Shown here one piece after another: positions 1 through 64,000 of a DNA stretch of 64,000 nt. A program made the translations under genes and the position numbers. This DNA is from Chloroflexi bacterium UBA4730 (lineage in GTDB: Bacteria > Chloroflexota > Limnocylindria > P2-11E). The notes under the pieces are model-generated. The model saw only the letters and a list, made by a program, of their open reading frames with translations, was not told where the DNA came from and made no database searches. The first letter of the stretch is position 1. The number at the start of each line of letters is the position of its first letter. The DNA lies in the NCBI GenBank assembly GCA_002404155.1, contig DHJC01000073.1:38937-102936 (forward strand). The letters run 5' to 3'.

Positions 1-1008
1 GTTCTCGAGCGGCTGACCGAGGGCGCCCTCCGGGTACACCCGGTCGAAGATCTCGCCGATGATGTGGAAGTTCGAGTCGACGAAGCCACCGACGCCGAAG
101 TAGATCCGGACCCTCTCGCCGACCTTCGCCGTGAGCGCGCCCGTGCCGGTCAGTGCACCGACCCGGCCGTTGAACAGAACGTAGTCCGGCGACTCGGCGA
201 GCAGCTTGTCGTTGGACAGGTCGTGGTGGCCCGGGATGCCGAACGCGGTCGTGGTGTAGAGCTCGCTCTGCATCACGTAGTACTCGTGATCGACCTTCGG
301 CAGGCCGCCGACCGGCTCGACCAGGATCATCCCGAACATCCCGTTGATGATGTGCGTCGGGATCGGCGCGGTGGCGCAGTGGTAGACGTAGAGCCCGGGG
401 TTGAGCGCCTTGAACGTGAACTTCGCCTCTTGTCCCGGCGAGACGATCGTGGCCCCCGACCCGCCGCCTGGACCGTTGACCGCGTGCAGGTCGATCGAGT
501 GCTGCATCACGTCGCCCGGCGCGTTCTTCAGGTGGAGCTCGACCGTATCGCCCACCCGCACCCGCAGCATCGGCCCCGGCACCGTGCCGTCGAAGGTCCA
601 GTAGCTGTAGGTCTGGCCCTCGTCGAGCTTCGCGATCAATTCCCTGGTTTCAAGAGTGACCACGACGGTCGTCGGCGTCGTCCGCGTGATCGGCGGTGGA
701 ACATCCGACGCCGCGCGCGAGATCTCATTCACGGTGACGGGCTTGGCACTCGCCGCCGGCGCCGCACCTGCCGCCGGCGTGGTGCTGGTCGATACGGGGT
801 CCATCCCGGGCATGGTGGCCGGCATCGCGGTCGCGACGGGACCCGAGACGGTGGCCGCGACCTTGGGCTGACTCGCGGCCGTCAGCACGAGCACCGTCGA
901 GGTGAAGAGCACAGCGACGGTGATGATCGTCAGGAGCAGATAGCGGTAGCCCTCGCCCATTGGATCGAAGACCGGTCGCGACACAGGCTGCACACGGTGT
1001 CCACTCAT
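1..1008 (-). CDS. nirK: Copper-containing nitrite reductase, N-terminally membrane-anchored; 3' end runs off the left edge
   Basis: Not in the ORF track; translated by hand from ATG at 1008. MSGHRVQ..., TM helix (YLLLTIITVAVLFTSTVLVLTAA), P/A/T linker, then WTFDGTVPGPMLRVRVGD, HSIDLHAV (type 1/type 2 Cu His, catalytic Asp), GLYVYHC, THIINGMFG, SNFHIIGEIFDRVY, which are NirK/AniA signatures. Confidence 0.93.
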   Translation of the reverse strand, partial: MSGHRVQPVSRPVFDPMGEGYRYLLLTIITVAVLFTSTVLVLTAASQPKVAATVSGPVATAMPATMPGMDPVSTSTTPAAGAAPAASAKPVTVNEISRAASDVPPPITRTTPTTVVVTLETRELIAKLDEGQTYSYWTFDGTVPGPMLRVRVGDTVELHLKNAPGDVMQHSIDLHAVNGPGGGSGATIVSPGQEAKFTFKALNPGLYVYHCATAPIPTHIINGMFGMILVEPVGGLPKVDHEYYVMQSELYTTTAFGIPGHHDLSNDKLLAESPDYVLFNGRVGALTGTGALTAKVGERVRIYFGVGGFVDSNFHIIGEIFDRVYPEGALGQPLEN

Positions 1009-1065
1009 GCGCTGACGGTATCGGTCATCAGCTAGGCAAGCGCCTGCCGAGGGTCATCGTCTGGC

Positions 1066-1081
1066 AGGGCCGGAGGTCCCG
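1066..1081. promoter_or_regulatory. DosR/OsdR-like operator box (AGGGCCGGAGGTCCCG) upstream of nirK
   Basis: Quasi-palindrome in the short intergenic gap, ~60 nt before the nirK start; same motif recurs at least 15 times in intergenic DNA. Confidence 0.65.
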
Positions 1082-1090
1082 ACCGCGGGG

Positions 1091-2392
1091 CTAGCGGCGG
1101 CGGCCGAAGCGGATCTCGAGCGGCACCGGCGCGCCCGCCGCGACCACCTCGGCGCTCGGACCCCGCAGCGTGCGGACCACGTTCAACGCGAAGAGCACGA
1201 GCGCACCGTAGGCGAGGAGCCCGGAGATGCCGACGATCGCGTCGCTCGGCGCACCCGTGGCTTGAACCAGCTGCGGCCCGACGCGCAGCGCGATCGCCAG
1301 ATTCGCGACCGCGAGCGTCGCCGCTTGCACTCGAAGGCTCCAAAGGCGGCGGCCGAGGAAGGCAGGCAGCGCACGCGACGCCACCGAGTAGATCATCAGC
1401 GTGACGAACCCAAGCGCCAGCGCGTGCCGGGCCGCCGAGACCTGGAGGTACGAGCCCGCGAGTCCCACCGTGCCCGCCGCGATGATCGCGAGTCCGATGA
1501 ACGCCCACAGGAACGCGGAACGCACGCCGATGCGGGTCAGGCGGGCGTGATCATGCAAGGGCTGACGGGCGATGCCCGATCCAAATACGCCCATCGCGCG
1601 GGTCAGCGCCGCAAGACCGACCAGCAGCAGCCATGGCCCCGGGGCCACGCCGAGCGAGAGAGTGAGGACACCCGCGAGCCAAAACGACGCGCCGGTGATG
1701 AGCAGCGGAGGCTTCGCTGGCACAGCGGCCACAAAGCCGGGGGCGAGGCGAGTCCACACGCCGAAGATGAGCGTGCTGAGGCTCCCGAGCAGCATCACCC
1801 ACACCGCCCGGTCATCGATGCCCTGGTCGACGAGCACGGGTGCAGATCCCGCCATCTCGAGGGCGACGAGCAGCGCGGCGATGGGCAGCACGCAGATCCC
1901 CGCGCCGATGAGAAGCTCGTCGGGCCGGTGGGGATTGCGGCCGGTCGCGAGCGATCGGAGTGCCGCGTAGCTGAAGGCGAGCGTTCCCACGCACAACAAC
2001 GCGCCGCTCAGAACAAGCAGCGAACCACGCGCGGGGAGGTCGGGCATCGGTTGGGCGATGGAGCGCAGGGCGAGGCCGCCCAGGGTCCCGAGGTACGTGA
2101 TCCACACGAGCGCCATCCGCGGAGGCGCCGCACCGCGGAATCGTGGCAGCGCGTTCAGCGCGACGCCCATCGCGAAGAGGCCGGCGAAGCCGAACAGCTG
2201 CAGCAGCCCATGGACCTGAACGAGTACGAGCCAGTTCGCGCCGAACATGCTGACGCCCCACACGCGGGCCAACAGCAACCAGAGACCGAGGCCGAAGCCC
2301 GCGCTCAGGCCGATCGCCAGCGAGGTCGCCGCGAAGAGGGCGACCGGCGGCGGACGAGTACTAGTCGACGTGTCGGTCGGCCAGGCCCGCAT
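1091..2392 (-). CDS. nnrS: NnrS-family multi-pass membrane protein (NO-stress associated)
   Basis: 433 aa, ~12 hydrophobic helices, HGLLQLFGFAGLFAMGVA...LPRF and RHALALGFVTLMIYSVASRALPAF repeats typical of NnrS; adjacent to nirK. Confidence 0.72.
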   Translation of the reverse strand: MRAWPTDTSTSTRPPPVALFAATSLAIGLSAGFGLGLWLLLARVWGVSMFGANWLVLVQVHGLLQLFGFAGLFAMGVALNALPRFRGAAPPRMALVWITYLGTLGGLALRSIAQPMPDLPARGSLLVLSGALLCVGTLAFSYAALRSLATGRNPHRPDELLIGAGICVLPIAALLVALEMAGSAPVLVDQGIDDRAVWVMLLGSLSTLIFGVWTRLAPGFVAAVPAKPPLLITGASFWLAGVLTLSLGVAPGPWLLLVGLAALTRAMGVFGSGIARQPLHDHARLTRIGVRSAFLWAFIGLAIIAAGTVGLAGSYLQVSAARHALALGFVTLMIYSVASRALPAFLGRRLWSLRVQAATLAVANLAIALRVGPQLVQATGAPSDAIVGISGLLAYGALVLFALNVVRTLRGPSAEVVAAGAPVPLEIRFGRRR

Positions 2393-2573
2393 CCTGACCG
2401 ACGGGGACCGGACTTACGGCAGCGCAGCGCAGCGCCGGCGTGCCGGCGGAGCGATCCAGATCGAGCAACCAGTTGCATTCTAGGCAGCGCGCGAGATCGA
2501 CCTCCTCGCCCCGCCGAGCGCAGTGCACCCGCCCGCTGGCAAGGACGGGACGCCAGCCACGCTCGCTATTCAT
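2361..2573 (-). CDS. Small Cys-rich hypothetical protein (70 aa), putative metal-binding
   Basis: MNSERGWRPVLASGRVHCARRGEEVDLARCLECNWLLDLDRSAGTPALRC...; ATG overlaps the end of the upstream PCYCGC gene (ATGAATAG), and the ORF overlaps the NnrS start. Confidence 0.55.
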   Translation of the reverse strand: MNSERGWRPVLASGRVHCARRGEEVDLARCLECNWLLDLDRSAGTPALRCAAVSPVPVGQDAGLADRHVD

Positions 2574-3024
2574 CGGGGTATGGGGTCGACGCGGACGGTC
2601 CCATCTCCATCCACTTCGCATCGATCGCGGCCCGAATTTCCTTCAGGCTCATGCCGCTCGCGAGCATGGCCTTCGTGTCGAGCGCGACACCCACGCAGGT
2701 GCCGCAGGCGAAGCCGTGCGGATCGAGGATGAACGTGTCTGGCGCCGTCTCTTCTTTCACGAAGCAGTCCCAGTTGTCACGATGCCCGGGGCCGCAGCCG
2801 CAGAAGCACGGGATGTGGCGCAGCTGCGCCTTGTGATCGACCGCGAACGCGTAGGCCTCGCGGACCGCTTGCGGCGCCTGCGCATAGCGACCGGGCCACA
2901 TGCCGTGCAGCGGCATCGCCAGCAGTGCGTTCGCGGTCGGTGCCGGTGCTGTTGCGACGGCGGGGGCCGCGCACGCGGCGAGCGCGGCACCGGCGAGCGC
3001 GACGAGGAACTCCCGGCGACGCAC
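2566..3024 (-). CDS. PCYCGC-motif lipoprotein
   Basis: GTG start at 3024; RRREFLVALAGAALAAC signal/lipobox; AYAFA, HIPCFCGCG..H..NWDC and HGFACGTC motifs characteristic of the family. Confidence 0.85.
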   Translation of the reverse strand: MRRREFLVALAGAALAACAAPAVATAPAPTANALLAMPLHGMWPGRYAQAPQAVREAYAFAVDHKAQLRHIPCFCGCGPGHRDNWDCFVKEETAPDTFILDPHGFACGTCVGVALDTKAMLASGMSLKEIRAAIDAKWMEMGPSASTPYPDE

Positions 3025-3025
3025 G

Positions 3026-3372
3026 TCAGGCCGACACGGCGGTGTACGGAGCGGTCGCCGGGAAGCCCTTCCCGTTGATCGTGAACCCACCGAGGGCGTC
3101 GCTGAGGATGAACAGCTCGTCCGTGTCGTCGGACGGGTCCACATTCCTCTCTCTTGGTACGACGATCAGCGGTCCAAGCATTCCCAGGCCGACCTGCTCC
3201 GTCGCGTTGTGGTGTGCGTCGTACTGCCGAACGGGCCGGCCGTGAACTCGTACGCGTACGTCAAGCCCGGCTTGATCGGCGGTTGGGTGATAGACGGGAC
3301 GCCGTCCATCGAGTTCGGGACCCGCTGGCCGTGCCGGTGGAACGCGGTGCTCTCAGACGGCGTGTAAGTCAC
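3026..3372 (-). pseudogene. Truncated, frameshifted multicopper-oxidase (cupredoxin domain) relic
   Basis: TAFHRHGQRVPNSMDGVPSITQPPIKPG..YEFTAGPFGS, then a frameshift near 3222 to YDAHHNATEQVGLGMLGPLIV...FTINGKGFPATAPYTAVSA*. HWH has become HRH; no signal peptide; C-terminal Cu-binding part absent. Confidence 0.8.
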
Positions 3373-3468: not shown

Positions 3469-4965
3469 CTACTGCACCAGGAACGCGAAGCGGAAGATCG
3501 GCAGCCGATTTCCCGGATGGTCGTCGAGGGCCGTCAGCTGCGGCATCTTGTAGTTCGCGGGCCGCGTCTCACTTCCCTGGTAGATGCCGGGGTACATGTC
3601 GATGAAGTGCCAACCCGGCTCGCCGGCGACGGTGAGCAGGATCTCGATGTCGCCGGCGCTCTGGAACGCGCAGGAGTAGCCGGCGAAGGCGTTGTCGTAC
3701 ACGAGGTGGTAGATCTGCTCGGTCTCGGTCCACCCGACGCCCTTGAGGTGCACCGACACCTTCGTCCCCGCGGGACCGCGGTCGACCGAGAGCGGGAACG
3801 CGTTCGCGAGGATGTAGAGGTTCGTCTTGGCGACGACGGTGTCGCCGATCTTCGCGGAGAGCACGTGGTCGCCGCCGAGGTCGTCGGGGACCTTGAACGC
3901 CCAGGTGAATGCGCCGTTGCCGTCGGTGCGCGTCGTGCCGAGCGCCTTGGTGCGCTCCTCGAAGCCGGTGACGGACCGGTTGCCGACCATTGTGGTCCAC
4001 CCGATCTCGATGTCGCTGTTCGCGGGGAGGGCCTTCGCGTTCAGCGTCGCGGGCGTGCCGACGATGGCGCCGCCTGGCGAGGTCCAGATGCCCTTGTCGA
4101 CCGGCTTCGCGCCGATGATCGCGAAGCCCTGCTGCTCGACGGGCTCGGGGAGGACGGCCGGGCCGTCGGTGATGGTGAACGGCAGGTGCGGGAACGGCCG
4201 CGATGCGACGACGGGCTGCTGCTGCGGGTTGAGGTACGGAGCGCCGAACTCGCTGTGCCCGAGGGTGATGTAGTGCGCGCCGGGCCTGCCGGTCGCCGGG
4301 ATGACGAACTTCGCGTAGCCGTCGGTCGTGATCGAGGAGACCCAACCGGTGTAGGCGTTGTCCCAGGAGAGCTGAAAGCTGTTCTGGTACGACTGCCAGC
4401 CGATGCCCTTCACCTCGACGGTGATCGGCGTGCCGAGCGGGCCGCTCGTCGGGCTGATGGTGGTGACCATGTCGACGTCGAAGAGGCTCTTGTTCCTGAT
4501 GATGCTCTGCGCGTCGACGACCATGACGTCGTGCGCGTAGCCGAAGCCGCGCGGCACGCTGAACGTCGCCTGGAAGCCGCCGTTCGCGTCGGTGGTCGGG
4601 CTCTGCAGCACGTTCTGGATGAGCGACGCACTGCGGCCCAGAAACTTGCTGCGATCGTCCGAAAGCTTCCATTGGACCTTGCCAGTGGTCCAGACGAGGT
4701 CGTACTTCGTCGACGGCTTCATGCCGGTCACCGTCGCCGTGACCTTCGTGTCCCACGGACCGCGTGCTGGTTCGAGGGCGAACTTGCCGACGACCTCCAT
4801 CGGCTGGACCGATGCGGTCGGGGCGGTGGATGCGACGGCCGCCGCCGCGCTCGCGGCGGGCTTGGCCGTCGCAGCACTCTCCAGACTCCGCGTGGGCGGA
4901 GCCTGGGTCGTGCTGCAGGCCGCGAGGAAGAGCGCCGCCGCGATCGCGACGGCGACACGCCTCAT
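3469..4965 (-). CDS. Lipoprotein of unknown function with repeated Ig/IPT-like beta-sandwich modules (498 aa)
   Basis: Lipobox LFLAAC; repeated module starts EPARGPWDTKVTATVTG / SPTSGPLGTPITVEVKGIGW / SVDRGPAGTKVSVHLKGVGW; repeated YDN(A)Y/F.G and TTDANGGF/TRTDGNGAF. Confidence 0.8.
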   Translation of the reverse strand: MRRVAVAIAAALFLAACSTTQAPPTRSLESAATAKPAASAAAAVASTAPTASVQPMEVVGKFALEPARGPWDTKVTATVTGMKPSTKYDLVWTTGKVQWKLSDDRSKFLGRSASLIQNVLQSPTTDANGGFQATFSVPRGFGYAHDVMVVDAQSIIRNKSLFDVDMVTTISPTSGPLGTPITVEVKGIGWQSYQNSFQLSWDNAYTGWVSSITTDGYAKFVIPATGRPGAHYITLGHSEFGAPYLNPQQQPVVASRPFPHLPFTITDGPAVLPEPVEQQGFAIIGAKPVDKGIWTSPGGAIVGTPATLNAKALPANSDIEIGWTTMVGNRSVTGFEERTKALGTTRTDGNGAFTWAFKVPDDLGGDHVLSAKIGDTVVAKTNLYILANAFPLSVDRGPAGTKVSVHLKGVGWTETEQIYHLVYDNAFAGYSCAFQSAGDIEILLTVAGEPGWHFIDMYPGIYQGSETRPANYKMPQLTALDDHPGNRLPIFRFAFLVQ

Positions 4966-4970
4966 GTCAT

Positions 4971-5525
4971 TTACCTCTTTCCGAGCGGCACGACGGTGAG
5001 AAGGGCCGCGGCGACCTTGAACTGATCCCAGGTGCCAACGGCACCATCGAGCGTCGTTACCTTGATCTGGTAGGTGAATGCGCCCGTTGGGTAGTCCTTT
5101 GGCAGGCTGAAGCCAGAGGTCCAGAAGAAGTCCGTGGGCACTGCGTTCGCACCGCCCGGGTGACCGCCGTACTTGAAGGCCTGGGTCTTTCCGTCCGGGA
5201 GCGTCAGGTCAAACGACTTGATGGCCTTGTCGTCCAGGGCCTTGCCCGAGAGCGGATCGAGCGCCTTGAAGCGCCACACGATGCGCGAGCCCTGCGGGAA
5301 CCGGCTCTGCTGGACGCAGGAGAGGAACGTCTTCTCCTCGTCGGTGAGCGCTTCGGGACTGCGGACCGTGTCGCCCTGCAGGATGAGGAACGATGCGACC
5401 TGCGGCTTCGCCGTGGTGGCCGCGGTCGCGGCGGTCGATTCGCCGGTGCCGCCTCCACACGAGGCAAGCGTGCCGACGACGAACGCGAAGGACGCGGTGG
5501 TCGCGAGGATGCGGCGCAAGATCAT
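4971..5525 (-). CDS. Lipoprotein of unknown function (184 aa)
   Basis: Signal peptide with lipobox LASC, A/T linker, beta-rich domain (SCVQQSRF...VWRFKALDP...YGGHP...FWT...DYPTG); start overlaps the upstream stop. Confidence 0.75.
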   Translation of the reverse strand: MILRRILATTASFAFVVGTLASCGGGTGESTAATAATTAKPQVASFLILQGDTVRSPEALTDEEKTFLSCVQQSRFPQGSRIVWRFKALDPLSGKALDDKAIKSFDLTLPDGKTQAFKYGGHPGGANAVPTDFFWTSGFSLPKDYPTGAFTYQIKVTTLDGAVGTWDQFKVAAALLTVVPLGKR

Positions 5526-6181
5526 GCGGTGTCTCCCTTTCGGCGTGATTCATTCGCGCGGGCGACCACGCCACGCGCGGTACCGAACAACGAAAGCGCG
5601 ATGAGGCCCCAGACCGCGAGCACCACGACCCCGGCCGCGTACGGGACGTACGCACTGAAGGTCGCGAGCGCGGGCCGGTCGACGGTGTACGCGGGCGCGG
5701 CGACGGTGGCCTCGAGCGTCGTGACGCCGAGTGACGGTGTGAGCGTGCCCTGTCCCGCGAAGCGCGCGACGATCTGGTGCGCGCCCGTCATGGCGGGGAG
5801 GTACGAGATCGCGGTGAGACCCTGTCCGTCGGTCACCGCGCTGCCGATGAGCTCCTCCCGCTGGCCGAACAGGTCGACGATGTCGTAGAAGCGGATCGTC
5901 GCGTCGTTCACCGGCATTCCGGCGGGGCTGATGACCGTCACGCTCAGCGTGTATCCGAGCTCCAGCTTCGCGGCGGGCGCCGTCGAGAGTGTCACCCGCG
6001 ATCCGTCGGCCGGCGGGACGATCGGCTGTGGGGCGGCGACCGTCGGCGCGCCGCTGTGCGCATGCGCGTCGTCGCTCGCCGCCGGAGCGCCCGCCACGAG
6101 CGGGAGCCGACCGCTGGCGAAGGCGATCACCGCGAGCGTCGCGACGAGGGCCGAGCCCAATAGCAGAGCTTTCCTGATCAC
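5522..6181 (-). CDS. Membrane-anchored Ig-like domain protein (signal/TM + Ig-like + C-terminal TM); homologous to the C-terminal fusion domain of the NrfD at 61740-63707
   Basis: GTG at 6181 overlaps the NrfD stop (GTGA); G.PV.DATIRF...IGSAVTDGQG.......TGAHQIVARFAG, then TM GVVVLAVWGLIALSLFG. Confidence 0.75.
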   Translation of the reverse strand: MIRKALLLGSALVATLAVIAFASGRLPLVAGAPAASDDAHAHSGAPTVAAPQPIVPPADGSRVTLSTAPAAKLELGYTLSVTVISPAGMPVNDATIRFYDIVDLFGQREELIGSAVTDGQGLTAISYLPAMTGAHQIVARFAGQGTLTPSLGVTTLEATVAAPAYTVDRPALATFSAYVPYAAGVVVLAVWGLIALSLFGTARGVVARANESRRKGDTA

Positions 6182-7512
6182 TTCCCACCGCCCTCGGCGA
6201 ACGTCGGCACGAGCACGATGGCGCGCGGCTCGGGCGTGCCTTCCACCTCTTCCATCTCGTGGACCGACATCACCGGGAAGAAGCGGAAGAAGATGATGAG
6301 GATGAGCGGGATCGCGGCGGCGGAGCCGATCGTGATCGTGACCTCGACCCACGTGGGCGAGTACCGGCCCCAGTCCCACGGCATGATCGGCTCGGCCATG
6401 CCGGGCACCACGATGAGGAACCGCTTCAGCCACATCCCGGCGATGACGAGCGTCGAGGCGCCGACCGCGCGCGCGATCGTGAACCGACCGGGAAACGCGG
6501 CGAGTGCGAGCGGGACGATGAGGCCGAGGATGGTGAAGGACCAGAAGGCCGGCGCGTAGCTGCCGACGAAGATCGCCTCGAGTACCGGCGTGACGCTCTC
6601 CTCGGCGAGGTATCCCTCCGTGAGGTACTCGCTGACCATGAAGTACAGGTAGCCGACGCCCAGGGCGATCATCAGATAGGAGAGGTACCGAAAGTGCCTC
6701 GCGGTGATGAACTCCTGGAGGCCGTAGACCTTGCGGAACGCGGCCACGACGAGGATGACCGCCGCGACGCCCGAGAGCATCGCGGCCAGGACGAACAGCG
6801 GAGCGAAGATCGTGCTGTGCCACCCGCCGCGCGCCGTCACCGCGAAGAGCCACGCGAGGACCGAGTGGACCGAGACCGCGAGCGGGATGATCAGCACGGC
6901 CATGATCCCGATGCCCCGGTGGAGCGAGGCCCGTTGGCCCGGCGTGCCCTTCCACCCGAGCGCGAGGACGCCGTAGATGCGCTGCAGCCTGCTCATGCGG
7001 AGCGAGTCGCGCGTGGTCGCGAGATCCGGGATGAGCGGCAGGTAGAGGAAGACGAGGCTCGCGATCATGTACGTGCTGATCGCGACGACGTCCCACACGA
7101 CCGGTGATCCGACCTGGCCGTACCGGAGGATGTACAGGAAGCGGTCCGGACGGCCCATGTCGATGATCGGGTACACCGCGCCGACGAGGAGCGCCGCGAC
7201 CGCCGTCGTTTCCGCCAGTCGCGTGAGCGGTGCGCGCCACTTCGCGTTCGTGAGACGGAGGATCGCGCTCGTCATCGCGCCGCCGTAGCTCATGCCGATG
7301 AAGAAGACGCAGTTGATGATGTAAAAGCCCCAGGAGACCTGCTGGTTAAGGCCGGTGACCCAGAGGCCGCGCTGGATCTGGTAGATCCAGGCGTAGATGC
7401 CGGCTGCGACGAGCGCGGACAGGACGGAGACCGCGATCCAGAAGTTGCGATCGCCGCGGCCGATGGGCCACGTCGCGCGCTCGATGTAACGGTCGTGCGT
7501 CCGGCGGTCCAT
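6178..7512 (-). CDS. NrfD/PsrC/DsrP-family quinone-interacting membrane subunit
   Basis: 444 aa, ~10 TM; GLWVTGLNQQVSWGFYI, DMGRPDRF, SPVVWD, SVHSVLAWLF, GWHSTIFAPLFV, MWLKRFLIVVPG, YSPTWVE. Confidence 0.9.
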   Translation of the reverse strand: MDRRTHDRYIERATWPIGRGDRNFWIAVSVLSALVAAGIYAWIYQIQRGLWVTGLNQQVSWGFYIINCVFFIGMSYGGAMTSAILRLTNAKWRAPLTRLAETTAVAALLVGAVYPIIDMGRPDRFLYILRYGQVGSPVVWDVVAISTYMIASLVFLYLPLIPDLATTRDSLRMSRLQRIYGVLALGWKGTPGQRASLHRGIGIMAVLIIPLAVSVHSVLAWLFAVTARGGWHSTIFAPLFVLAAMLSGVAAVILVVAAFRKVYGLQEFITARHFRYLSYLMIALGVGYLYFMVSEYLTEGYLAEESVTPVLEAIFVGSYAPAFWSFTILGLIVPLALAAFPGRFTIARAVGASTLVIAGMWLKRFLIVVPGMAEPIMPWDWGRYSPTWVEVTITIGSAAAIPLILIIFFRFFPVMSVHEMEEVEGTPEPRAIVLVPTFAEGGGK

Positions 7513-8292
7513 CTAGAAGTCCAAGAGCTGACCGTGGCCGGCGATGTAGTAGACGCGCGGGCCGGTGCCGAGCTCTTCCTTGTAGCGGAACGCGTCATTC
7601 TCCTTAAGGAACGTCGAGAGGCGTACGGTCCGGTCACCGTTCGTGGCGACGTCCTCGACGAGGTCGCCGATGTAGATCGCCTTCATGGGGCAGCCCTCAA
7701 CGCACGCGGGGAGCTGCCCCTCCGCGGTGCGGTGGACGCAGAACATGCATTTGCCGACGGTGCCCTTCTGCTGCGGCACCGGGAACTCCGGGGTCGCGTG
7801 TCCGAAGGGGTTGTCGTACTTCGGCGGGTCGACGTAGTTGAAGTAGCGGGCGCCGTACGGGCACGCCGCCATGCACATGCGGCAGCCGATGCAGCGGTCC
7901 TGATCGACGAGGACGACGCCGTCGGCTACACGGTAGGTCGCGGCGACCGGGCACACGCGGAGGCACGGGGCGTTCTCGCACTGGAAGCAAGGACGCGGCA
8001 TGAAGTACTCGCCGCCGTGCTTGTCCTTGACCTGGAAGACCTTGATCCACTCGAAGTTCTGCGGGAGGTGGTGCGTCTCCTGGCAGGCCTCCGTGCACTT
8101 CTTGCAGCCGTCGCAATTCCGAAGGTCGATGACCATCGCCCACTGACGCGGCTTGGCGTCGGGTGCGTGTTCCGACTCGGCCGCCGCCTCGAACGTGATC
8201 GGGGACATCCCGGCCGCGACGGCCACAGCGGCGCTGGCGCCCAGACCGCCGAGACCAACCAGGAGCTGCCTGCGGGAGACCGGGCCCGCCAT
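7513..8292 (-). CDS. Tat-exported 4x[4Fe-4S] ferredoxin subunit (NrfC/DsrO/DmsB-like)
   Basis: ATG at 8292 after a GAGGAGAGG RBS; SRRQLL twin-arginine signal; MVIDLRNCDGCKKCTEAC, CFQCENAPCLRVCP, CIGCRMCMAACPY, CMFC...ACVEGCP. Confidence 0.92.
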   Translation of the reverse strand: MAGPVSRRQLLVGLGGLGASAAVAVAAGMSPITFEAAAESEHAPDAKPRQWAMVIDLRNCDGCKKCTEACQETHHLPQNFEWIKVFQVKDKHGGEYFMPRPCFQCENAPCLRVCPVAATYRVADGVVLVDQDRCIGCRMCMAACPYGARYFNYVDPPKYDNPFGHATPEFPVPQQKGTVGKCMFCVHRTAEGQLPACVEGCPMKAIYIGDLVEDVATNGDRTVRLSTFLKENDAFRYKEELGTGPRVYYIAGHGQLLDF

Positions 8293-8368
8293 TTGTCCTC
8301 TCCTCATGCCGCGGTCTGACCAGTCAGCCGGGTTGGCTCCAAGATGGCGGGGGCGCCGGGCGCGAATA

Positions 8369-57466: not shown

Positions 57467-57580
57467 TTCATTGGTGCCGAACGGCCTTCCTGCAAGTGCC
57501 GAACGGCACCAATCGGCCCATTCGATGGAGCAGGTCTCGGCCCACCCGGTCGCGTGTGGTGGCCCTCCGCGGCGAGAACG

Positions 57581-59542
57581 ATGCTCGTGACCGTGGCGTA
57601 TACGTTCCAGGTCGAGCGGTCGGGCTGCCTGAACTGTGGCGTCTGCATGGACGTCTGTCCGGTGCACGCCCTGGACATGACGCGGCGCACGGGGACATCG
57701 ATCGAGTCAGGAGCGGTCCGGCACCGGGCGTCGGCGGACGCCGGGGGTCAGGACTGGATGATGGAATTCCCGATCCAGACCGGGGTCTGCGTCGGCTGCC
57801 AGCTCTGCGCGACCGAGTGCCCCACGAGCGTGATCACGATCACCGCGGCTGTGGGGCGGACCGCGCTCGCACCTCCGCAGGGCCCGATCACGGCCGCGCC
57901 CGAGACGACCGGATGGGCGCCGCTCTCCGCCTACACGCACGATGCGCTGCGCGAGCCGCGGGGCGATCCGTGGGGTGCGCTCGCCGAGTGGCGTCCGGTG
58001 AACCGCCCTGACGCCTGGCAGACGTGGCGCGGCTGGGGCGATCCGGCGACGGCGCGATTCCTCGCGCCGTGCCAGGAGGCGTGCCCGGTCGGCACCGACG
58101 CGGGCCTCTATGTCGCGCTCGTCGGCGAAGGTCGCTATGCGGAGGCGTTCGCGGTGGCCGCCGAGTACAACCCGTTCCCGTCGATCTGCGGACGCGTGTG
58201 CACGGCTCCGTGCGAGATCGCGTGCCGGCGCGGCGTGCTCGACGAGCCCATCGCCATCCGTGAGCTGAAGCGGTTCGCCGCCGATCACGGGGCGGCCGGG
58301 TATCCCCGTCCGGTCCCCGCCGAGCGGCGCCGGGTCGAGCGGGTGGCGATCGTCGGCGCCGGCCCGACCGGGCTCAGCGCCGCGTACGCGCTGATCCGCT
58401 CCGGGTACGGCGTGACCGTCTTCGACGCGATGCCCGTCGCCGGCGGGATGATGGCGATCGGGATCCCCGAGTACCGCCTGCCCAAGGACGTGCTGCGAGC
58501 GGATGTCGATCGCATCGTCGGCCTCGGCGTGGAGCTGCGACTCAACACCGCGCTCGGGCGCGACATCAGCCTCGAGCAGCTCAAGGCCGAGGGCTACGAC
58601 GCCATCCTCCTCGCGACGGGTGCCTCGAAGAGCCAGCGCCTCGGGATCGCGGGCGAGGATGCCGAAGGGGTCTGGCCCGCGACGCTGTTCCTGAAGAAGG
58701 TGAACCTGGGCGAGCCCGTGGAGCTGACCGGTGAGGCGCTGGTCGTCGGTGGGGGCTCCACCGCGCTGGATGCCGCACGCACCGCCTGGCGAGCGGGGGC
58801 CCGGACCGTTCGCATCCTCTATCGCCGCACGAAAGAGGACATGCCCGCGCAGCACGAGGAGCTTCGCGCCGCCGACCACGAAGGCGTGGTCATCGAGCCG
58901 CTCGTGGCTCCGATCGAGGTGCTTCGCAAGAACGGTTGGATGACCGGCGTGCGCTGCGTGCGCCTCGCGATCACCGGTCGCGACGCCGATGGGCGGAGCG
59001 CGGTGGCGCCGATCCCCGGCAGCGAGTTCGTGATCGAGGCGTCCGCGCTCATGGTCGCGGTCGGCGAAGCCCCCGATCCGTCGATCCTGCCGGAAGGATC
59101 GAACATCCAGGTCGCCGAATGGGGCGGTGTCGTCGTCGACGCCGAGTCGCTCGCGACGGCGCAGCGCGGGATCTTCGCCGCGGGCGACGTGGCGACCGGT
59201 CCGCGGAGCGTCATCGAGGGAGCGGCCCAAGGGCAGCGCGCCGCGTGGGCGATCGATCGGTATCTACGGCACCAGGACGACGGCACCGACGTGGCCACAT
59301 ACGTGCCGAGCTGGCGCGTCACGCCGTCAGTTCCCAGCACGAAAACCGTCGCCGTCGACCTCGCGCAACGACCGCGCGCGGAGGCCGCCCTCGCGAGCGT
59401 TCGCGGGACGCCGGCGAGCTACGCGGAGGTCTCGCTCGGTCTCACCGAAGCCACCGCTCGCGCGGAAGCGACGCGCTGCTTCCGCTGCGACGTGATCGCG
59501 CAGTGCCCGGCCGTCCAAGTCCAAGGGAGGAGATCAGCATGA
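57581..59542 (+). CDS. 2x[4Fe-4S] ferredoxin fused to a GltD/NfnB-like FAD/NAD(P)H oxidoreductase
   Basis: CLNCGVCMDVCP and CVGCQLCATECP; APCQEACP, CGRVCTAPCEIAC; GAGPTG; GIPEYRLP; GGGSTALD; LYRR; AAGD; C-terminal EATRCFRC. Confidence 0.9.
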   Translation: MLVTVAYTFQVERSGCLNCGVCMDVCPVHALDMTRRTGTSIESGAVRHRASADAGGQDWMMEFPIQTGVCVGCQLCATECPTSVITITAAVGRTALAPPQGPITAAPETTGWAPLSAYTHDALREPRGDPWGALAEWRPVNRPDAWQTWRGWGDPATARFLAPCQEACPVGTDAGLYVALVGEGRYAEAFAVAAEYNPFPSICGRVCTAPCEIACRRGVLDEPIAIRELKRFAADHGAAGYPRPVPAERRRVERVAIVGAGPTGLSAAYALIRSGYGVTVFDAMPVAGGMMAIGIPEYRLPKDVLRADVDRIVGLGVELRLNTALGRDISLEQLKAEGYDAILLATGASKSQRLGIAGEDAEGVWPATLFLKKVNLGEPVELTGEALVVGGGSTALDAARTAWRAGARTVRILYRRTKEDMPAQHEELRAADHEGVVIEPLVAPIEVLRKNGWMTGVRCVRLAITGRDADGRSAVAPIPGSEFVIEASALMVAVGEAPDPSILPEGSNIQVAEWGGVVVDAESLATAQRGIFAAGDVATGPRSVIEGAAQGQRAAWAIDRYLRHQDDGTDVATYVPSWRVTPSVPSTKTVAVDLAQRPRAEAALASVRGTPASYAEVSLGLTEATARAEATRCFRCDVIAQCPAVQVQGRRSA

Positions 59543-60171
59543 CACCCGATCAGCTCGCGGACGCGATCGTCAAAGCTTTCCTGCAAGGTGGTGAGGGGTT
59601 CCTCGAGGGGACCATGGCGGCGGCGCTGCCGATCATCTGGCTGCTCGCCCTCGCCCTGCACCTCGCCCGTCCCTACATGCTCCGCATGACCCAGAAATTC
59701 ACCCTGCGGCTCGCCGCGGACATCTGGTGGGTGCTCTACATCGCGCTCCGCGATGGCCTCCTGGCGGTCGCTTTCATCATGAGCTTCATGTTCCTCTTCC
59801 CCGACGTCCTGCTCGCCGATGCTCTGCCGATCGGCGGATCGATCGCGACGGCGCTGCTGTTCGGGGTGCTGCTCACCAAGCTCGTCGCGGACACGGACGA
59901 TGACCCGCGCGCCTTCCGCCTGGTCTCGGGTCTGCTCGCCGGCGGCGTGGCCGTCTACGTCCTCCCGACGATTATCGGCGTGCAGGTGAGCGCGCTCGAT
60001 CTCGGAGATCCCTGGAACAGCATCGGGCAGTCGCTCGTGACGTCCACGAACGGAGCCCTGGCGATCACGTTCTGGTGGATCTCGCTCCTGGCGATCGGCG
60101 TGATGGGCGTCGTGGCGGTGTGGTTCAACCTGCGTACGCCCGGAATGACCCTTGGGAGGGCCGCACGATGA
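59539..60171 (+). CDS. Hypothetical multi-pass membrane protein, paralog A
   Basis: GGGAGG RBS; MTPDQLADAIVKAF; LHLARPY; FTLRLAADIWW..Y...RD; KL..D.DD. Confidence 0.8.
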   Translation: MTPDQLADAIVKAFLQGGEGFLEGTMAAALPIIWLLALALHLARPYMLRMTQKFTLRLAADIWWVLYIALRDGLLAVAFIMSFMFLFPDVLLADALPIGGSIATALLFGVLLTKLVADTDDDPRAFRLVSGLLAGGVAVYVLPTIIGVQVSALDLGDPWNSIGQSLVTSTNGALAITFWWISLLAIGVMGVVAVWFNLRTPGMTLGRAAR

Positions 60172-60815
60172 CACCCGATCAGATCACCGAGGCGATCACC
60201 AAGGCCTTTGTCGAAGGCGGGCAGCAGTGGCTCGTCCTCACGATCGCGGCATTCATGCCCGCGCTCTGGGCGTTCACGCTGATGCTCCATCTCGCGCGCC
60301 CCTACGTGATCCGCACGCTGCGCAAGCTGTCCCTGCGCTTCGGCGCCGACGTGTGGTGGCTGACCTACGTCCTCGTGCGCGACGCCGTGACCATCCTCAC
60401 GTTCGGTCTCAGCTTCATCTTCCTGATGCCGAACCTCATCCTCACGTTCGACCTCCCGCTCACCGCGCCGCTCGCCACGCTGTTCCTCTTCTGGGCGCTC
60501 TACGTGAAACTGCTCTACGACGCCGACGACAACTTCGGGGCGTACCGGCTCGTCACCGCGCTGCTCGTGATCGGCGCGACGCTCTACTTCGTCCCGCAGA
60601 CGCTCGGGCTCGAGTCGAACTCGCAGGACTACCTGGCAGGACTCGTCTCCTTCTTCGATTCGACGAAGAACCAGGCATGGGCTGGGCCGATCCTGATCGT
60701 CGCGCTCATCGGGTCTGCAGTGACGGCCGGGGCGATCTTCTGGCGCGTCGTGCTCGCTCCTGCGGGGTCGGCGGCCGCTGCGACCGGCGGGCAGCCGCGT
60801 CCGGCGACACGTTGA
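60168..60815 (+). CDS. Hypothetical multi-pass membrane protein, paralog B
   Basis: GGGAGG RBS; MTPDQITEAITKAF; LHLARPY; LSLRFGADVWW..Y...RD; KL..D.DD; ATGA overlap with paralog A. Confidence 0.8.
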   Translation: MTPDQITEAITKAFVEGGQQWLVLTIAAFMPALWAFTLMLHLARPYVIRTLRKLSLRFGADVWWLTYVLVRDAVTILTFGLSFIFLMPNLILTFDLPLTAPLATLFLFWALYVKLLYDADDNFGAYRLVTALLVIGATLYFVPQTLGLESNSQDYLAGLVSFFDSTKNQAWAGPILIVALIGSAVTAGAIFWRVVLAPAGSAAAATGGQPRPATR

Positions 60816-60864: not shown

Positions 60865-61752
60865 ATGAGGGGCTCGATCTCGCGGCGAGGGTTCCTTGCT
60901 CGGCTGGGCGTGGGTGCGGGCGCCGCGGTGGTGGCCACCGGATTCGTGCCGATCCATTTCGACGCAGCGGCCTCGCCGCAGGCGACCGCGGCCGCCACGA
61001 ACAAGCGCCTGCGCCGCTGGTCGATGGTCATCGACTTACGGCGGTGCGACGGCTGTCAGGCGAACGGCACGCCACCGCAGTGCACCGAGGCGTGCATCCA
61101 GGGTCACTTCGTGCCAGAGCCGATGGAGTGGATCCAGGTGTACGAGGCGCCGCTCGACGCTGGTGGCAAGGCAACGCAGTTCATCCCCGCACCGTGTCAG
61201 CAGTGCCAGAACCCGCCGTGCGTGAACGTCTGCCCGGTCGCGGCGACCTACTCGACGCCCGAAGGCGTTGTCCTGATCGACCAGCAGCGCTGCATCGGCT
61301 GCCGGCTGTGCATGGAGGCGTGCCCCTACGACCGCCGCTTCTTCAACTGGGGCAACCCGCCGCAGCCGCCGGAGGCGATGTTCATGGACTACTCGCCCGA
61401 GCACCAGACACCGGCCATCCGCGGGACGGTGATGAAGTGCGACTTCTGCCCGGATATGGCGCGCGCCGGGCGCCTGCCGTATTGCTGCCAGGGTTGCCCG
61501 AACAACGCGATCTACTACGGCGACCTCGAGGAGGACGTCGCGACCAACGGGGTCGAGGTGGTCAAGCTCTCCAAGTTCCTCGCCGACCACACCGGCTACC
61601 GGCTGAAGGAAGAGCTCGGTACCGAGCCCCGAGTCCACTACATCCCCGGGCATGGCGAGCTCATCGGCCGGGATCCGACCAAGACGGGCCGCAAGCCAAC
61701 GACCTGGCCCTGGGTAAAGCTCATCCAAGGAGCGCTGACATGGACGCGCTGA
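60865..61752 (+). CDS. Tat-exported 4x[4Fe-4S] ferredoxin subunit (NrfC/DsrO-like), second copy
   Basis: SRRGFL Tat signal; MVIDLRRCDGC...CTEAC, CQQCQNPPCVNVCP, CIGCRLCMEACPY, CDFC...CCQGCP. Confidence 0.92.
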   Translation: MRGSISRRGFLARLGVGAGAAVVATGFVPIHFDAAASPQATAAATNKRLRRWSMVIDLRRCDGCQANGTPPQCTEACIQGHFVPEPMEWIQVYEAPLDAGGKATQFIPAPCQQCQNPPCVNVCPVAATYSTPEGVVLIDQQRCIGCRLCMEACPYDRRFFNWGNPPQPPEAMFMDYSPEHQTPAIRGTVMKCDFCPDMARAGRLPYCCQGCPNNAIYYGDLEEDVATNGVEVVKLSKFLADHTGYRLKEELGTEPRVHYIPGHGELIGRDPTKTGRKPTTWPWVKLIQGALTWTR

Positions 61753-63707
61753 GCTCGCACGAGGCCCCTGGCGTCACACCCCAGTGGCGGGAGCGCCTCG
61801 AGCGGCGCGCGCTCGCACCCCTCGCCTCGACCGGGCGGCGGTACTGGCTGTGGATCGGTTTTCTCCTGCTCACCATCAGCTGGGGGCTCTACGCCTGGTC
61901 GACGCAGTTGGAGAACGGCCTGATCGTCACCGGCCTGCGCGACCGCATCTCCTGGGGCGTGTACATCGCGAGCTTCGTCTTCTTTATCGGCATCAGCCAC
62001 GCCGGGACGCTCCTCTCGGCGATCCTCCGCGCGACCAAGGCGCGCTGGCAGCTCTCGATCACCCGCATGGCCGAGCTCATCACTGTCGTGGCGCTGTGCG
62101 TGGGGGCGCTGTTCCCCTTCATCGACATGGGCCACCCCGAACGCTTCATGAATCTGGTGTTCTTCGGCCGCTGGCAGTCGCCGCTCATCTGGGACATCCT
62201 CGCGATCACGACCTATCTCACCGGGTCGTCGCTCTACCTGCTGCTGCCGCTCATCCCCGACTTCGCGCTCGCCCGCGATCGGCTCGGCGCCACCGCGTCG
62301 CGCTTTCACCGCACCCTCTTCACCTTGGCCGCGGTCGGCTACCACGGGACGCCAGCTCAGCGGAAGGCGCTTGAGCGGGCGATGACTGTGATGATGATCA
62401 TCATCATCCCGGTCGCGGTGTCCGTGCACACCGTGGTCTCCTGGATCTTCGCGATGACCCTGCGGGTCCCGATGAACACCACGGTGTTCGGGCCCTTCTT
62501 CGTCGCTGGCGCGATCTACTCGGGCATCGCCGCGATCGTGTTGCTGATGGCGGTGCTGCGCAAGGTCCTGCACCTCGAGGAGTTCATCACGATCACGCAG
62601 TTCAGGTGCCTGGGCTATCTCCTGGGAGCGTTCACGCTGATCATGGCCTACTTCAACCTGCAGGAGTACGCGGTCCATGGCTACAAGCTCGAGGCCGGCA
62701 TGCCGTTCCACTTCGCCCAGCTCATGACCGGACCCTTCTGGCCACTCTTCTGGTTCTACATCCTGGGCGGCATCGTCCTTCCCGGTCTGCTCATCCTCAA
62801 TCCGGGTACCCGCACGATCCGGGGCATCGTCGCCGCCTCCGCGCTCGCGCTTCTCGGCATGTGGGGCGAGCGGTATCTGATCGTGGTGACGGGCTTCCGA
62901 GTGCCGCTCATGCCCTACGCGCCGTCGGACTACACCCCGACCTGGGTCGAGTGGTCGATCCTCGCGGGCGCGCTCGGCCTCTTCGCGCTGATCATCTCGA
63001 TCTTTGCCAAGCTCTTCCCGGTCATCTCGGTCTGGGAGGTGACCGAGCACCGCGGCCCAGAGCCCGTTGCCGAGTACCAGGCCCCGGCCCGTCGGCGGGT
63101 CGGCGCCGCGGCGGGAGCGGGCCTCCTCACCCTGCTCATGGTCGGCGGGACCGCGGCGGGCTTCATCCTCGGCTCGCAGGCGAGCGCCGACGGACGGACA
63201 GCGACCCAGATCACCGTGGCCGTTCCCGGGCAGGTGGCACTCGGCCAGACCATCGAGGCCCAGGCGCGGCTGCTCGACGGGACCGGCACACCCATCGCGA
63301 AGGCCATCATCCAGTTCACGGTCCCGCTCGCCTTCCTCGAATCGAGCAGCGACGTGGTGCTCGCCCAGGCGACGACCGACAAGAGTGGAATCGCGGACGT
63401 GCGGTTCGATATCCGGACCTCCGGAGCGCTCGAGGTGCACGCGGTCTACGCCGGGGACGATCGCTACGCGCCCGGGACCGCTGTCGCCCCGGTGACTGTC
63501 AACGGCGATCAGCAGCTCTACGTGCAGCACGCGGGCGTACCGGTGCCTGGGCTGAATGAGGCGCCTTCCCAGGTGTCCGCCGCTGACTCGCTGTGGCCTG
63601 GCTTGAGCGGATGGCCGATCGCGCTCGTGCTCATCGTCGTCTGGTCGCTCTTCGCCTTCGTCGCGGTGCTCGTCGCCCGCATCGCGCGAGTCCAGGAGGT
63701 CCCGTAG
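61740..63707 (+). CDS. NrfD/DsrP-family membrane subunit fused to a C-terminal TM + Ig-like + TM module
   Basis: GLIVTGLRDRISWGVYI, DMGHPERF, SPLIWD, SVHTVVSWIF, YTPTWVE; after the NrfD end comes a TM, then GTPIAKAIIQF...AQATTDKSG...SGALEVHAVYAGD and WPIALVLIVVWSLFAFVA. Confidence 0.9.
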   Translation: MDALSSHEAPGVTPQWRERLERRALAPLASTGRRYWLWIGFLLLTISWGLYAWSTQLENGLIVTGLRDRISWGVYIASFVFFIGISHAGTLLSAILRATKARWQLSITRMAELITVVALCVGALFPFIDMGHPERFMNLVFFGRWQSPLIWDILAITTYLTGSSLYLLLPLIPDFALARDRLGATASRFHRTLFTLAAVGYHGTPAQRKALERAMTVMMIIIIPVAVSVHTVVSWIFAMTLRVPMNTTVFGPFFVAGAIYSGIAAIVLLMAVLRKVLHLEEFITITQFRCLGYLLGAFTLIMAYFNLQEYAVHGYKLEAGMPFHFAQLMTGPFWPLFWFYILGGIVLPGLLILNPGTRTIRGIVAASALALLGMWGERYLIVVTGFRVPLMPYAPSDYTPTWVEWSILAGALGLFALIISIFAKLFPVISVWEVTEHRGPEPVAEYQAPARRRVGAAAGAGLLTLLMVGGTAAGFILGSQASADGRTATQITVAVPGQVALGQTIEAQARLLDGTGTPIAKAIIQFTVPLAFLESSSDVVLAQATTDKSGIADVRFDIRTSGALEVHAVYAGDDRYAPGTAVAPVTVNGDQQLYVQHAGVPVPGLNEAPSQVSAADSLWPGLSGWPIALVLIVVWSLFAFVAVLVARIARVQEVP

Positions 63708-63709
63708 CG

Positions 63710-64000
63710 ATGGACGTCTACATCGAGATAGCGGTGGGTATCGCAGCGCTTCTCGTGCTGAGCCGCATCGTTGCCGGCGTCCCGGGCGAACGCGCCTATC
63801 GCCGGGCCACCGTGTTCATTGGCGTGCTCCTGGTCTGCGTCGCGCTCACGATCCTCACGATCGGCGCGCGCAGCCCGTACACCCACGCGAACCTCAGCGC
63901 CGGCTACGACCCGCACTACGATTTCACCGCCCAGATCAGCACCGGCGACGACACGAGCTTCATGGGCGTGAGCCCGCAGGCCGCCCCAACCGCGGCTGAT
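63710..64000 (+). CDS. Membrane protein, 5' part only (runs off the right edge)
   Basis: GGAGG RBS; MDVYIEIAVGIAALLVLSRIV...VFIGVLLVCVALTILTIGARSPYTHANL...; two TM then a soluble segment. Confidence 0.7.
   Translation, partial: MDVYIEIAVGIAALLVLSRIVAGVPGERAYRRATVFIGVLLVCVALTILTIGARSPYTHANLSAGYDPHYDFTAQISTGDDTSFMGVSPQAAPTAAD

Follow-up and report, generated by a model that had tools for sequence, protein, structure and literature searches.

Within a stretch of 64,000 nucleotides of contig DHJC01000073.1 from Chloroflexi bacterium UBA4730 (at its full length, the window) lie two modules, each of which encodes an iron–sulphur (FeS) protein of the NrfC type, exported by the twin-arginine translocation (Tat) system, and an integral membrane protein of the NrfD family. 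In both modules the NrfD is followed by an immunoglobulin-like (Ig-like) β-sandwich with a C-terminal transmembrane (TM) helix, a unit that is referred to here as the Ig/TM protein or domain and that is the subject of this analysis (Table 1). In module 1 the Ig/TM protein is the product of its own gene; in module 2 it is the C-terminal part of the NrfD polypeptide. That the same position is occupied by a split form in one module and by a fused form in the other had been pointed out in an earlier note on this DNA, and the pattern is real; the coordinates given there for the two open reading frames (ORFs), 61740–63707 on the plus strand and 5522–6181 on the minus strand, are also correct. Judged from sequence, and backed by recurrent gene fusion, Ig/TM is very probably an undescribed accessory subunit of minimal modules that resemble alternative complex III (ACIII).

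Table 1. Features of the two modules, with positions in the window (aa, amino acids; GA, Pfam gathering threshold; AF2, AlphaFold2).
Feature	Position	Strand	Evidence or remark
NrfC2, Tat-exported 4×[4Fe-4S] ferredoxin subunit, 295 aa	60865–61752	+	twin-arginine motif SRRGFL
NrfD2 domain of the fusion (aa 1–440), 10-helix ActC-like predicted quinone-binding membrane subunit	61740–63059	+	Pfam NrfD E 8.6e-34
TM11 of the fusion (aa 454–478), at the former signal-peptide position	63099–63173	+	AF2 helix 454–478
Ig-like β-sandwich of the fusion (aa 489–588), predicted non-cytoplasmic	63204–63503	+	AF2, 8 strands; Pfam Big_3_5 2e-6 and Big_1 2e-5, both below GA
TM12 of the fusion (aa 625–650), C-terminal anchor helix	63612–63689	+	AF2 helix 625–650; conserved W635-S-L and R647
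Membrane-anchored monohaem cytochrome c, module 2	63710–64000 (gene extends to 64234, past the window)	+	CATCH haem motif; Pfam Cytochrome_CBB3 2e-13
Two-domain cupredoxin lipoprotein, after the cytochrome c	64231–65280 (outside the window)	+	Cupredoxin_1 1.7e-11
NrfC1, Tat-exported FeS subunit of module 1	7513–8307 (start 8307 or 8292)	-	Tat motif SRRQLL; NCBIfam DsrO-like 176.8 bits, cut-off 200
NrfD1, ActC-like membrane subunit of module 1, 444 aa	6178–7512	-	Pfam NrfD 2e-38
Stand-alone Ig/TM protein, 219 aa	5522–6181	-	N-terminal hydrophobic aa 5–23; Ig-like ~aa 60–165; C-terminal TM aa 182–200
Lipoprotein, 184 aa, β-sandwich, fourth gene of the module-1 cassette	4971–5525	-	Cys70 invariant, His122 nearly so
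Lipoprotein, 498 aa, weak IPT/TIG-like repeats, fifth gene of the module-1 cassette	3469–4965	-	Pfam TIG weak

The fusion ORF of module 2 encodes 655 aa, comprising in order a ten-helix NrfD part, an extra helix, the Ig-like sandwich and a last helix. All of these elements appear in its AF2 model (mean predicted local distance difference test, pLDDT, 82.6; predicted template modelling score 0.74), in which the sandwich lies mostly above a pLDDT of 90. Searched with Foldseek, the NrfD part of the model matches the ActC subunit of ACIII (6btm_C, 8k9e_C, 6lod_C and 6f0k_C; TM-scores of 0.84–0.86 at 29–30% identity), and the Ig part matches macroglobulin MG domains and nanobodies. At the level of sequence, NrfD2 retrieves ActC chains only from the PDB with phmmer (best E 2e-57), as does NrfD1 (E 1e-62 to 8e-56), and the two score 118 and 133 bits against Pfam NrfD (PF03916), for which the cut-off is 25.8. 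Their NrfD parts are 44% identical (E 2e-118), and they are the only two NrfD homologues of the source genome (83% complete), one per module. NrfC2 is related in the PDB to PsrB (2e-25) and to the B2 domain of ActB (2e-21); in NCBIfam it has DsrO/NrfC/TtrB-like matches, every one below cut-off. The genes are closely packed: NrfC2 and NrfD2 overlap by 13 nucleotides and the cytochrome c gene starts three bases after the fusion ORF, an order (NrfC, NrfD::Ig/TM, cytochrome c) that is kept in loci L007–L009. In module 1 the GTG start of the stand-alone Ig/TM gene overlaps the NrfD1 stop as GTGA and its own stop overlaps the next start as ATGA, overlaps that suggest translational coupling.

The likeness of the two Ig/TM copies, which the earlier note had aligned by eye, is reproduced by BLASTP, in which residues 58–149 of the stand-alone protein pair with 483–578 of the fusion (25% identity over 96 residues, E 0.004) and the segments GMPVNDATIRF/GTPIAKAIIQF, AVTDGQG/ATTDKSG and GAHQIVARFAG/GALEVHAVYAG come to lie opposite each other. 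Taken alone this score is marginal, and it could be met by two unrelated, generic Ig-like domains that happen to be flanked by hydrophobic segments: both window proteins fall under the gathering score of 35.5 for Big_3_5/Big_1 (28.7 and 22.3), the TD..G turn is common in Ig-like folds, and the weak matches of the profile in other genomes are to ordinary Ig proteins that have no NrfD in their neighbourhood. Such a coincidence is nevertheless very improbable in the light of the profile comparisons. Aligned as families (106 clusters of relatives, 186–259 aa, for the stand-alone form; 10 clusters by the initial region search, about 50 by a full-length search, for the fused tails), the two match in hhalign with a probability of 96.8% (E 2.8e-10) over 133 columns, which span the Ig domain and also the last helix, where TM12 aligns with the helix of the stand-alone family through a common V-W-x-L motif (VW.L); a second hhalign comparison, likewise counted for homology, gives 95.6%. 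Moreover, an independent profile of 35 distant family members, with neither window protein included, has just two matches at E < 10 when the genome's six-frame ORFs, 30,161 in total, are searched: the stand-alone ORF (8e-33) and the fusion tail (2.3e-7). Both copies occupy the same operon slot, each sub-family occurs both split from and fused to the NrfD that belongs to it, independently of the other, and the argument for a subunit would hold for each sub-family even if the two were unrelated. The window copies are remotely related and represent paralogous sub-families, not one gene in split and fused form. One correction concerns the N-terminal hydrophobic segment of the stand-alone forms, which resembles a cleavable signal peptide more than a permanent TM helix, at least in the module-2 type.

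The best Rosetta-stone evidence, stronger on sequence grounds than that of the window pair, comes from the orthologues of NrfD2. These are 70–83% identical in the NrfD part and exist in three forms: fused to Ig/TM (641–680 aa), unfused (440–507 aa) and fused at the N-terminus to NrfC (~760–780 aa). At three loci with unfused or NrfC-fused NrfD (L010, L011 and L012), the next gene, which overlaps the stop of NrfD, is for an Ig/TM protein of 227–243 aa that comprises a signal peptide, an Ig-like domain and a single helix at the C-terminus; after it comes a monohaem cytochrome c. Aligned with residues 467–649 of the window fusion, two split proteins of this kind are 43% and 39% identical to it (E 4e-43 and 4e-36, respectively), the first being the stand-alone P0230. 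With this match, and the 96.8% profile match of the window stand-alone protein, the homology behind the Rosetta-stone claim of the earlier note is borne out. As to the third form, the module-2 orthologue clade with NrfC at the N-terminus of NrfD (P0211–P0229, 758–780 aa; L012 6001–8301) would demand synthesis, in a single polypeptide, of a polytopic membrane protein together with an FeS domain that is exported by Tat.

The history of the fusion was followed in a FastTree phylogeny of 126 NrfD domains. In it, all 50 fused sequences group together in a single clade (support 0.988), which apart from them contains just two records with truncated C-termini and is sister to a split form; the NrfC::NrfD fusions form a clade of their own. 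An exhaustive profile search also returned a fusion in the module-1 lineage (P0245, locus L024, 679 aa), with an NrfD part of the module-1 type and a tail that matches the module-1 Ig/TM family at E 1.9e-47; the order at this locus is NrfC, NrfD::Ig/TM, a 190-aa gene and a 498-aa gene, and the fusion nests among split module-1 forms. Since the module-1 fusion stands apart from the fused clade of module 2, fusion to NrfD occurred at least twice. The split form would be ancestral, and fusion would have taken place once in the module-2 lineage and independently in that of module 1. It is scarcely credible, in the face of these data, that the 655-aa ORF arose from two genes joined by an assembly error or a frameshift. 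The source assembly is a fragmented metagenome-assembled genome of 92 contigs, and its high G+C content favours long spurious open frames; against this, the same architecture recurs in ~50 protein clusters of 641–680 aa from independent metagenomes and sources, the fused sequences form a single clade, and the junction has conserved motifs of its own. The distribution of the family among close relatives is patchy, with the split module-2 form in a genome of the same family (G325) and neither an ActC-like NrfD nor an Ig/TM gene in G317 (91% complete), the only other genome of the genus in the sample.

Conservation within the Ig/TM family is concentrated in the core of the sandwich (the TD..G turn and glycines) and in the last helix, with its invariant Trp and following Arg. 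Among 61 fused and split sequences W635 and L631 are each conserved at 98% and R647 at 90%; the stand-alone protein of the window has V190-W191-x-L193 in the equivalent helix, then R203, and the module-2 type has in addition a conserved juxtamembrane L-W-P..S-G-W-P. In the family alignments neither sub-family shows a conserved Cys, His or Met; Ig/TM is therefore probably a cofactor-free structural adaptor.

The segment between NrfD and the sandwich merits separate consideration. ActC has both termini in the cytoplasm (PMC5928083), and because NrfD ends there, an extra helix is needed if the fused domain is to lie outside. In the split orthologues the position aligned to TM11 holds a typical signal peptide that ends in A-x-A before Q or E and has no GxxxGxxxG; the mature split form would thus probably span the membrane with a single helix. 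Throughout the fused clade, by contrast, TM11 carries a GxxxGxxxG without exception (G470, G474 and G478, each in 48 of 48), followed at residues 480–483 by Q-A-x-A (Q480 in 44/48, A481 in 47/48, A483 in 46/48) and then by D/A-D-R. These patterns suggest that what was once a signal peptide now serves as a packing helix, or that signal peptidase still processes the fusion as a polyprotein, or both. In the polyprotein case signal peptidase I would cut after Q-A-x-A behind TM11, releasing a mature Ig/TM and leaving the eleventh helix on NrfD, such that fused and split forms would be alike at the level of the protein. The near-invariance of Q-A-x-A in the fused clade, the AxA end of the split orthologues' signal peptides at the aligned position, and the n-region (RRR) and hydrophobic core that TM11 retains all point this way; the gain of an invariant GxxxGxxxG speaks for a helix kept for packing, although cleavage behind that helix would still be compatible with it. 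Overall, cleavage is a fair possibility to which we incline less than half-way, and it would alter the maturation step of Ig/TM, not the case for a subunit. A precedent is FbcH of Bradyrhizobium, a cytochrome b/c1 precursor, in which a polytopic quinol-oxidising subunit is likewise joined to an outer-face partner via an internal signal-peptide-like segment; there, cleavage has been demonstrated, whereas in the window fusion it is only suggested by the conserved AxA.

The tie of Ig/TM to NrfD was assessed from genome contexts, chiefly among 401 sampled genomes from the phylum. In all nine contexts that were looked up, those of distant members included, Ig/TM directly follows an NrfD. In the sample, one family profile (A1) has NrfD-adjacent matches in each of the ten genomes that it hits, and 17 of the 18 strong matches of a broad profile are NrfD-adjacent, such that in these genomes the domain does not occur mostly away from NrfD and the adjacency expected from the earlier note is upheld. 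Among these, the 14 top-scoring loci (E <= 3.5e-13) have NrfD immediately upstream without exception, and three of four further strong loci have the order NrfC, NrfD, Ig/TM, cytochrome c, the remaining one being L057. A group of 16 weaker loci (E >= 1.5e-10) match in the Ig part only, with no helix and no NrfD nearby, and are ordinary Ig-domain proteins. Viewed from the other partner, an ActC-like NrfD is found in 151 of the 401 genomes, and the Ig/TM gene lies beside most of the closest ones.

Several points weigh against so close a relationship. The strong match at L057 adjoins a cytochrome c gene after a two-component system, with no NrfCD, and several close ActC-like NrfDs are without an Ig/TM partner, from which it follows that Ig/TM is not obligatory for an ActC-like NrfD. 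The window copies are remote from one another (HMM scores of about 24–31 bits, besides the BLASTP E of 0.004) and their fold is the generic Big_1/Big_3_5 sandwich; no cofactor motif is present in any of the three outer, Ig-like proteins of module 1; and the physical association of Ig/TM with NrfD is one that we infer. The claim of a dedicated third subunit of this NrfCD subtype is sustained by the repeated split and fused forms and by the near-constant adjacency to NrfD, and is limited by the close ActC-like NrfDs that lack the partner. At some loci the place of Ig/TM is taken by other genes, namely an SPFH/Band-7 (stomatin-like) gene in L067, L068 and L076 (PF01145, E 9e-35), an unrelated membrane protein in L073, and in L075 a true ActD (PF11821, E 1e-25), which is followed by a monohaem cytochrome c. 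The protein at L057 (G307:C43, 3283–5042) is itself an Ig/TM paralogue, in which further TM helices are appended at the C-terminus and a His-rich stretch interrupts the Ig domain; this protein and the cytochrome c follow a sensor kinase and a response regulator, and the same genome has a normal NrfD–Ig/TM–cytochrome c locus (L036).

Alternatively, Ig/TM might not belong to the NrfCD core but anchor to the membrane, or help to assemble, an outer electron-transfer partner (cytochrome c, cupredoxin or lipoproteins), its adjacency to NrfD reflecting co-regulation only. Indeed, the Ig and helix unit is also found fused to cytochrome c and to cupredoxin (P0328, P0341) and to an NHL propeller, and one locus, as described above, has Ig/TM and cytochrome c with no NrfCD. 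This explanation is distinctly unlikely, in that the two independent in-frame fusions to NrfD imply a 1:1 stoichiometry and proximity, Ig/TM directly follows NrfD in the contexts looked up whichever partner comes after it, and the last helix is conserved beyond the need of a mere anchor. Both the genomic fusion of cytochrome c to Ig/TM (L038/L064) and that of Ig/TM to NHL adjoin NrfD. The latter (P0283, L025 3256–4899) consists of the Ig and helix unit, a further TM segment and an NHL β-propeller, and follows NrfC–NrfD; beyond it lie a multihaem cytochrome, another NHL protein and a PCYCGC protein.

The reading that we prefer, and consider likely, is that Ig/TM serves, as a dedicated accessory subunit devoid of cofactors, a clade of minimal quinone modules of the NrfC/ActC type, which would themselves be stripped-down relatives of ACIII. 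In such a module the ActC-like NrfD, with ten helices and both ends in the cytoplasm, would bind quinol, and the Tat-exported NrfC would pass the electrons on via its FeS clusters at the outer face of the membrane. The C-terminal helix of Ig/TM, with its conserved Trp and following Arg, would pack on NrfD within the membrane, thereby holding the Ig sandwich at the outer face beside NrfC, where it may serve as a scaffold or docking adaptor for the outer partner specific to each operon: the monohaem cytochrome c and the cupredoxin in module 2, and two Ig-fold lipoproteins in module 1. The split Ig/TM would be exported by its N-terminal signal peptide; in the fused form the signal-peptide segment would have become an eleventh helix, by which the polypeptide crosses from the cytoplasm, where NrfD ends, to the outer side. 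Homology, gene order, repeated fusion, the ActC-like fold and the absence of conserved metal ligands are direct results of the analysis, whereas contact between the proteins, their topology, the adaptor role and the direction of electron flow are deduced from them.

Comparison with ACIII (ActABCDEF; 6F0K, 6BTM, 6LOD and 8K9E) reveals both likeness and difference. The window NrfDs match only ActC in the PDB (E 1e-62 to 2e-49), the NrfC resembles the FeS (B2) domain of ActB, and the succession of FeS subunit, ActC-like subunit, small membrane subunit and monohaem cytochrome c parallels actB-actC-actD-actE, with the Ig/TM gene in the actD slot and the cytochrome c gene in that of actE; in a canonical ACIII locus of the same phylum, ActD and then a monohaem cytochrome c stand in the corresponding operon slots. 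ActD is a two-helix subunit beside helices 4 and 5 of ActC, with an outer loop that contacts ActB (PMC5928083), and the fused Ig/TM similarly has two helices with a connecting part at the outer face. By contrast, the window modules have no pentahaem ActA, module 2 encoding one CxxCH protein and module 1 none; ActB has ~950–1040 aa and a molybdopterin-like B1 domain, where NrfC2 has 295 and NrfC1 ~264 aa and both align only with ActB residues ~780–990, the B2 part; and no second NrfD-like subunit equivalent to ActF is present in the genome (83% complete). In Pfam scans the ActD family (PF11821) has no match in the fusion, the stand-alone Ig/TM, P0230 or P0262 (the control, L075, gives E 1e-25). 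The soluble part of ActD consists of cytoplasmic β-α-β motifs, whereas that of Ig/TM is an outer Ig sandwich, and the conserved Glu of the second ActD helix is absent from Ig/TM. The modules, having no ActA, B1 domain, ActD or ActF, are therefore not ACIII. The possibility that Ig/TM is a diverged ActD was rejected, since PF11821 is unmatched and the soluble domain is predicted to lie on the opposite side of the membrane; the analogy is one of position only. The best PDB relatives of the module-2 cytochrome c are QcrC haem domains, not ActE. It was also considered whether module 2 could be the sole complex III equivalent of the organism, and this was rejected since the genome has two cytochrome b genes; together with one haem–copper oxidase, these genes make module 2 an additional branch of the respiratory chain.

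The modules likewise share with PsrBC, DsrOP, QrcCD and NrfCD a Tat-exported four-cluster ferredoxin and a cofactor-free quinone subunit of the NrfD family. The named NCBIfam families that score best are DsrO/DsrP and QrcC/QrcD, all at values short of their cut-offs (DsrP 131/127 against 350; QrcD 53/52 against 570; DsrO 174/177 against 200). Unlike those systems, the window modules encode no molybdopterin, multihaem or DsrMK partner, and an Ig-fold membrane subunit is described for none of them in a review of the family (PMC8076601). As for the fold, Ig/TM resembles the Big_1/Big_3_5 domains (invasin/intimin-type, macroglobulin-like) in structure and weakly in sequence, and the relatives P0230 and P0262 exceed the Pfam gathering score (37.7/36.2 and 37.0) that the window proteins do not reach; in adhesins and surface proteins such domains are strung together in tandem, whereas the window form is a single domain tied to a conserved helix and to an NrfD gene. 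By sequence, the Ig/TM family finds nothing meaningful in the PDB.

The earlier note had held that such a third subunit is not known from described complexes, and this agrees with what was found: the protein has no name in Pfam, NCBIfam or the PDB, and no Ig-fold partner of NrfD is described in the NrfD review (PMC8076601), in the other literature searched or in the family libraries. Public records label proteins of the Ig/TM type hypothetical, or simply NrfD/PsrC. A name would thus be warranted for a family that, clustered at 50% identity, comprises over 200 clusters (247 representatives, E <= 1e-10), currently annotated 'hypothetical protein'.

At the core of many respiratory complexes lie NrfD/ActC-type subunits, which are coupled to quinone and may translocate ions, and the described NrfD/ActC complexes all, to our knowledge, pair this subunit with haem, molybdopterin or hydrogenase partners. 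The modules described here would consist of a minimal FeS and ActC-like core, a conserved unnamed third subunit and interchangeable outer partners, with the repeated gene fusions as genomic evidence that Ig/TM works in contact with NrfD. As such they offer structural biology a defined target, a small relative of ACIII made of three or four proteins; no new principle of energy conservation is revealed by the finding alone. A bolder version, in our estimation rather unlikely, is that Ig/TM functionally replaces ActD and that the minimal ACIII-like complexes to which it belongs, perhaps proton-motive, form a widespread family not yet described. Its helix would then lie beside the quinol-binding four-helix bundle of the ActC-like subunit, the Ig domain would select the partner that docks on NrfC (a cytochrome c, a cupredoxin, a multihaem protein or Ig-fold lipoproteins), and the fused genes would be polyproteins cut by signal peptidase at Q-A-x-A, with the glycine-zipper helix left on NrfD.

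Module 1 as a whole (3469–8307, minus strand) is a cassette of five genes, for NrfC, NrfD, Ig/TM, a lipoprotein of ~190 aa and one of ~500 aa, that is kept across distant genomes with varying flanks (L001–L006, L014–L019, L023 and L024); a two-component system often lies alongside it (L001–L006, L023 and L024). The two lipoproteins, of 184 and 498 aa in the window, have no relatives in the PDB and, apart from the weak TIG match of the larger one, no Pfam family. The AF2 model of the smaller (pLDDT 76.5) has only generic Ig-like matches in Foldseek (E>1e-3), and its invariant Cys70 is additional to the Cys of the lipobox. Directly downstream of module 1 (1–3144, minus strand) are genes for a protein with a PCYCGC motif, NnrS and a membrane-anchored NirK-like copper nitrite reductase, and a PCYCGC gene also occurs near the NrfCD–Ig/TM::NHL locus (L025 7904–8410). 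These neighbours hint at a link with copper or nitrite. Module 2 is accompanied by genes for a ferredoxin/GltD-like flavoprotein and two paralogous membrane proteins of ~210 aa that have no Pfam family (57554–60815, plus strand); this set is absent from L007, L008, L011 and L012, and lies upstream of the module in the window and in L009 (2187–5415) and downstream of it in L010 (8577–11787).

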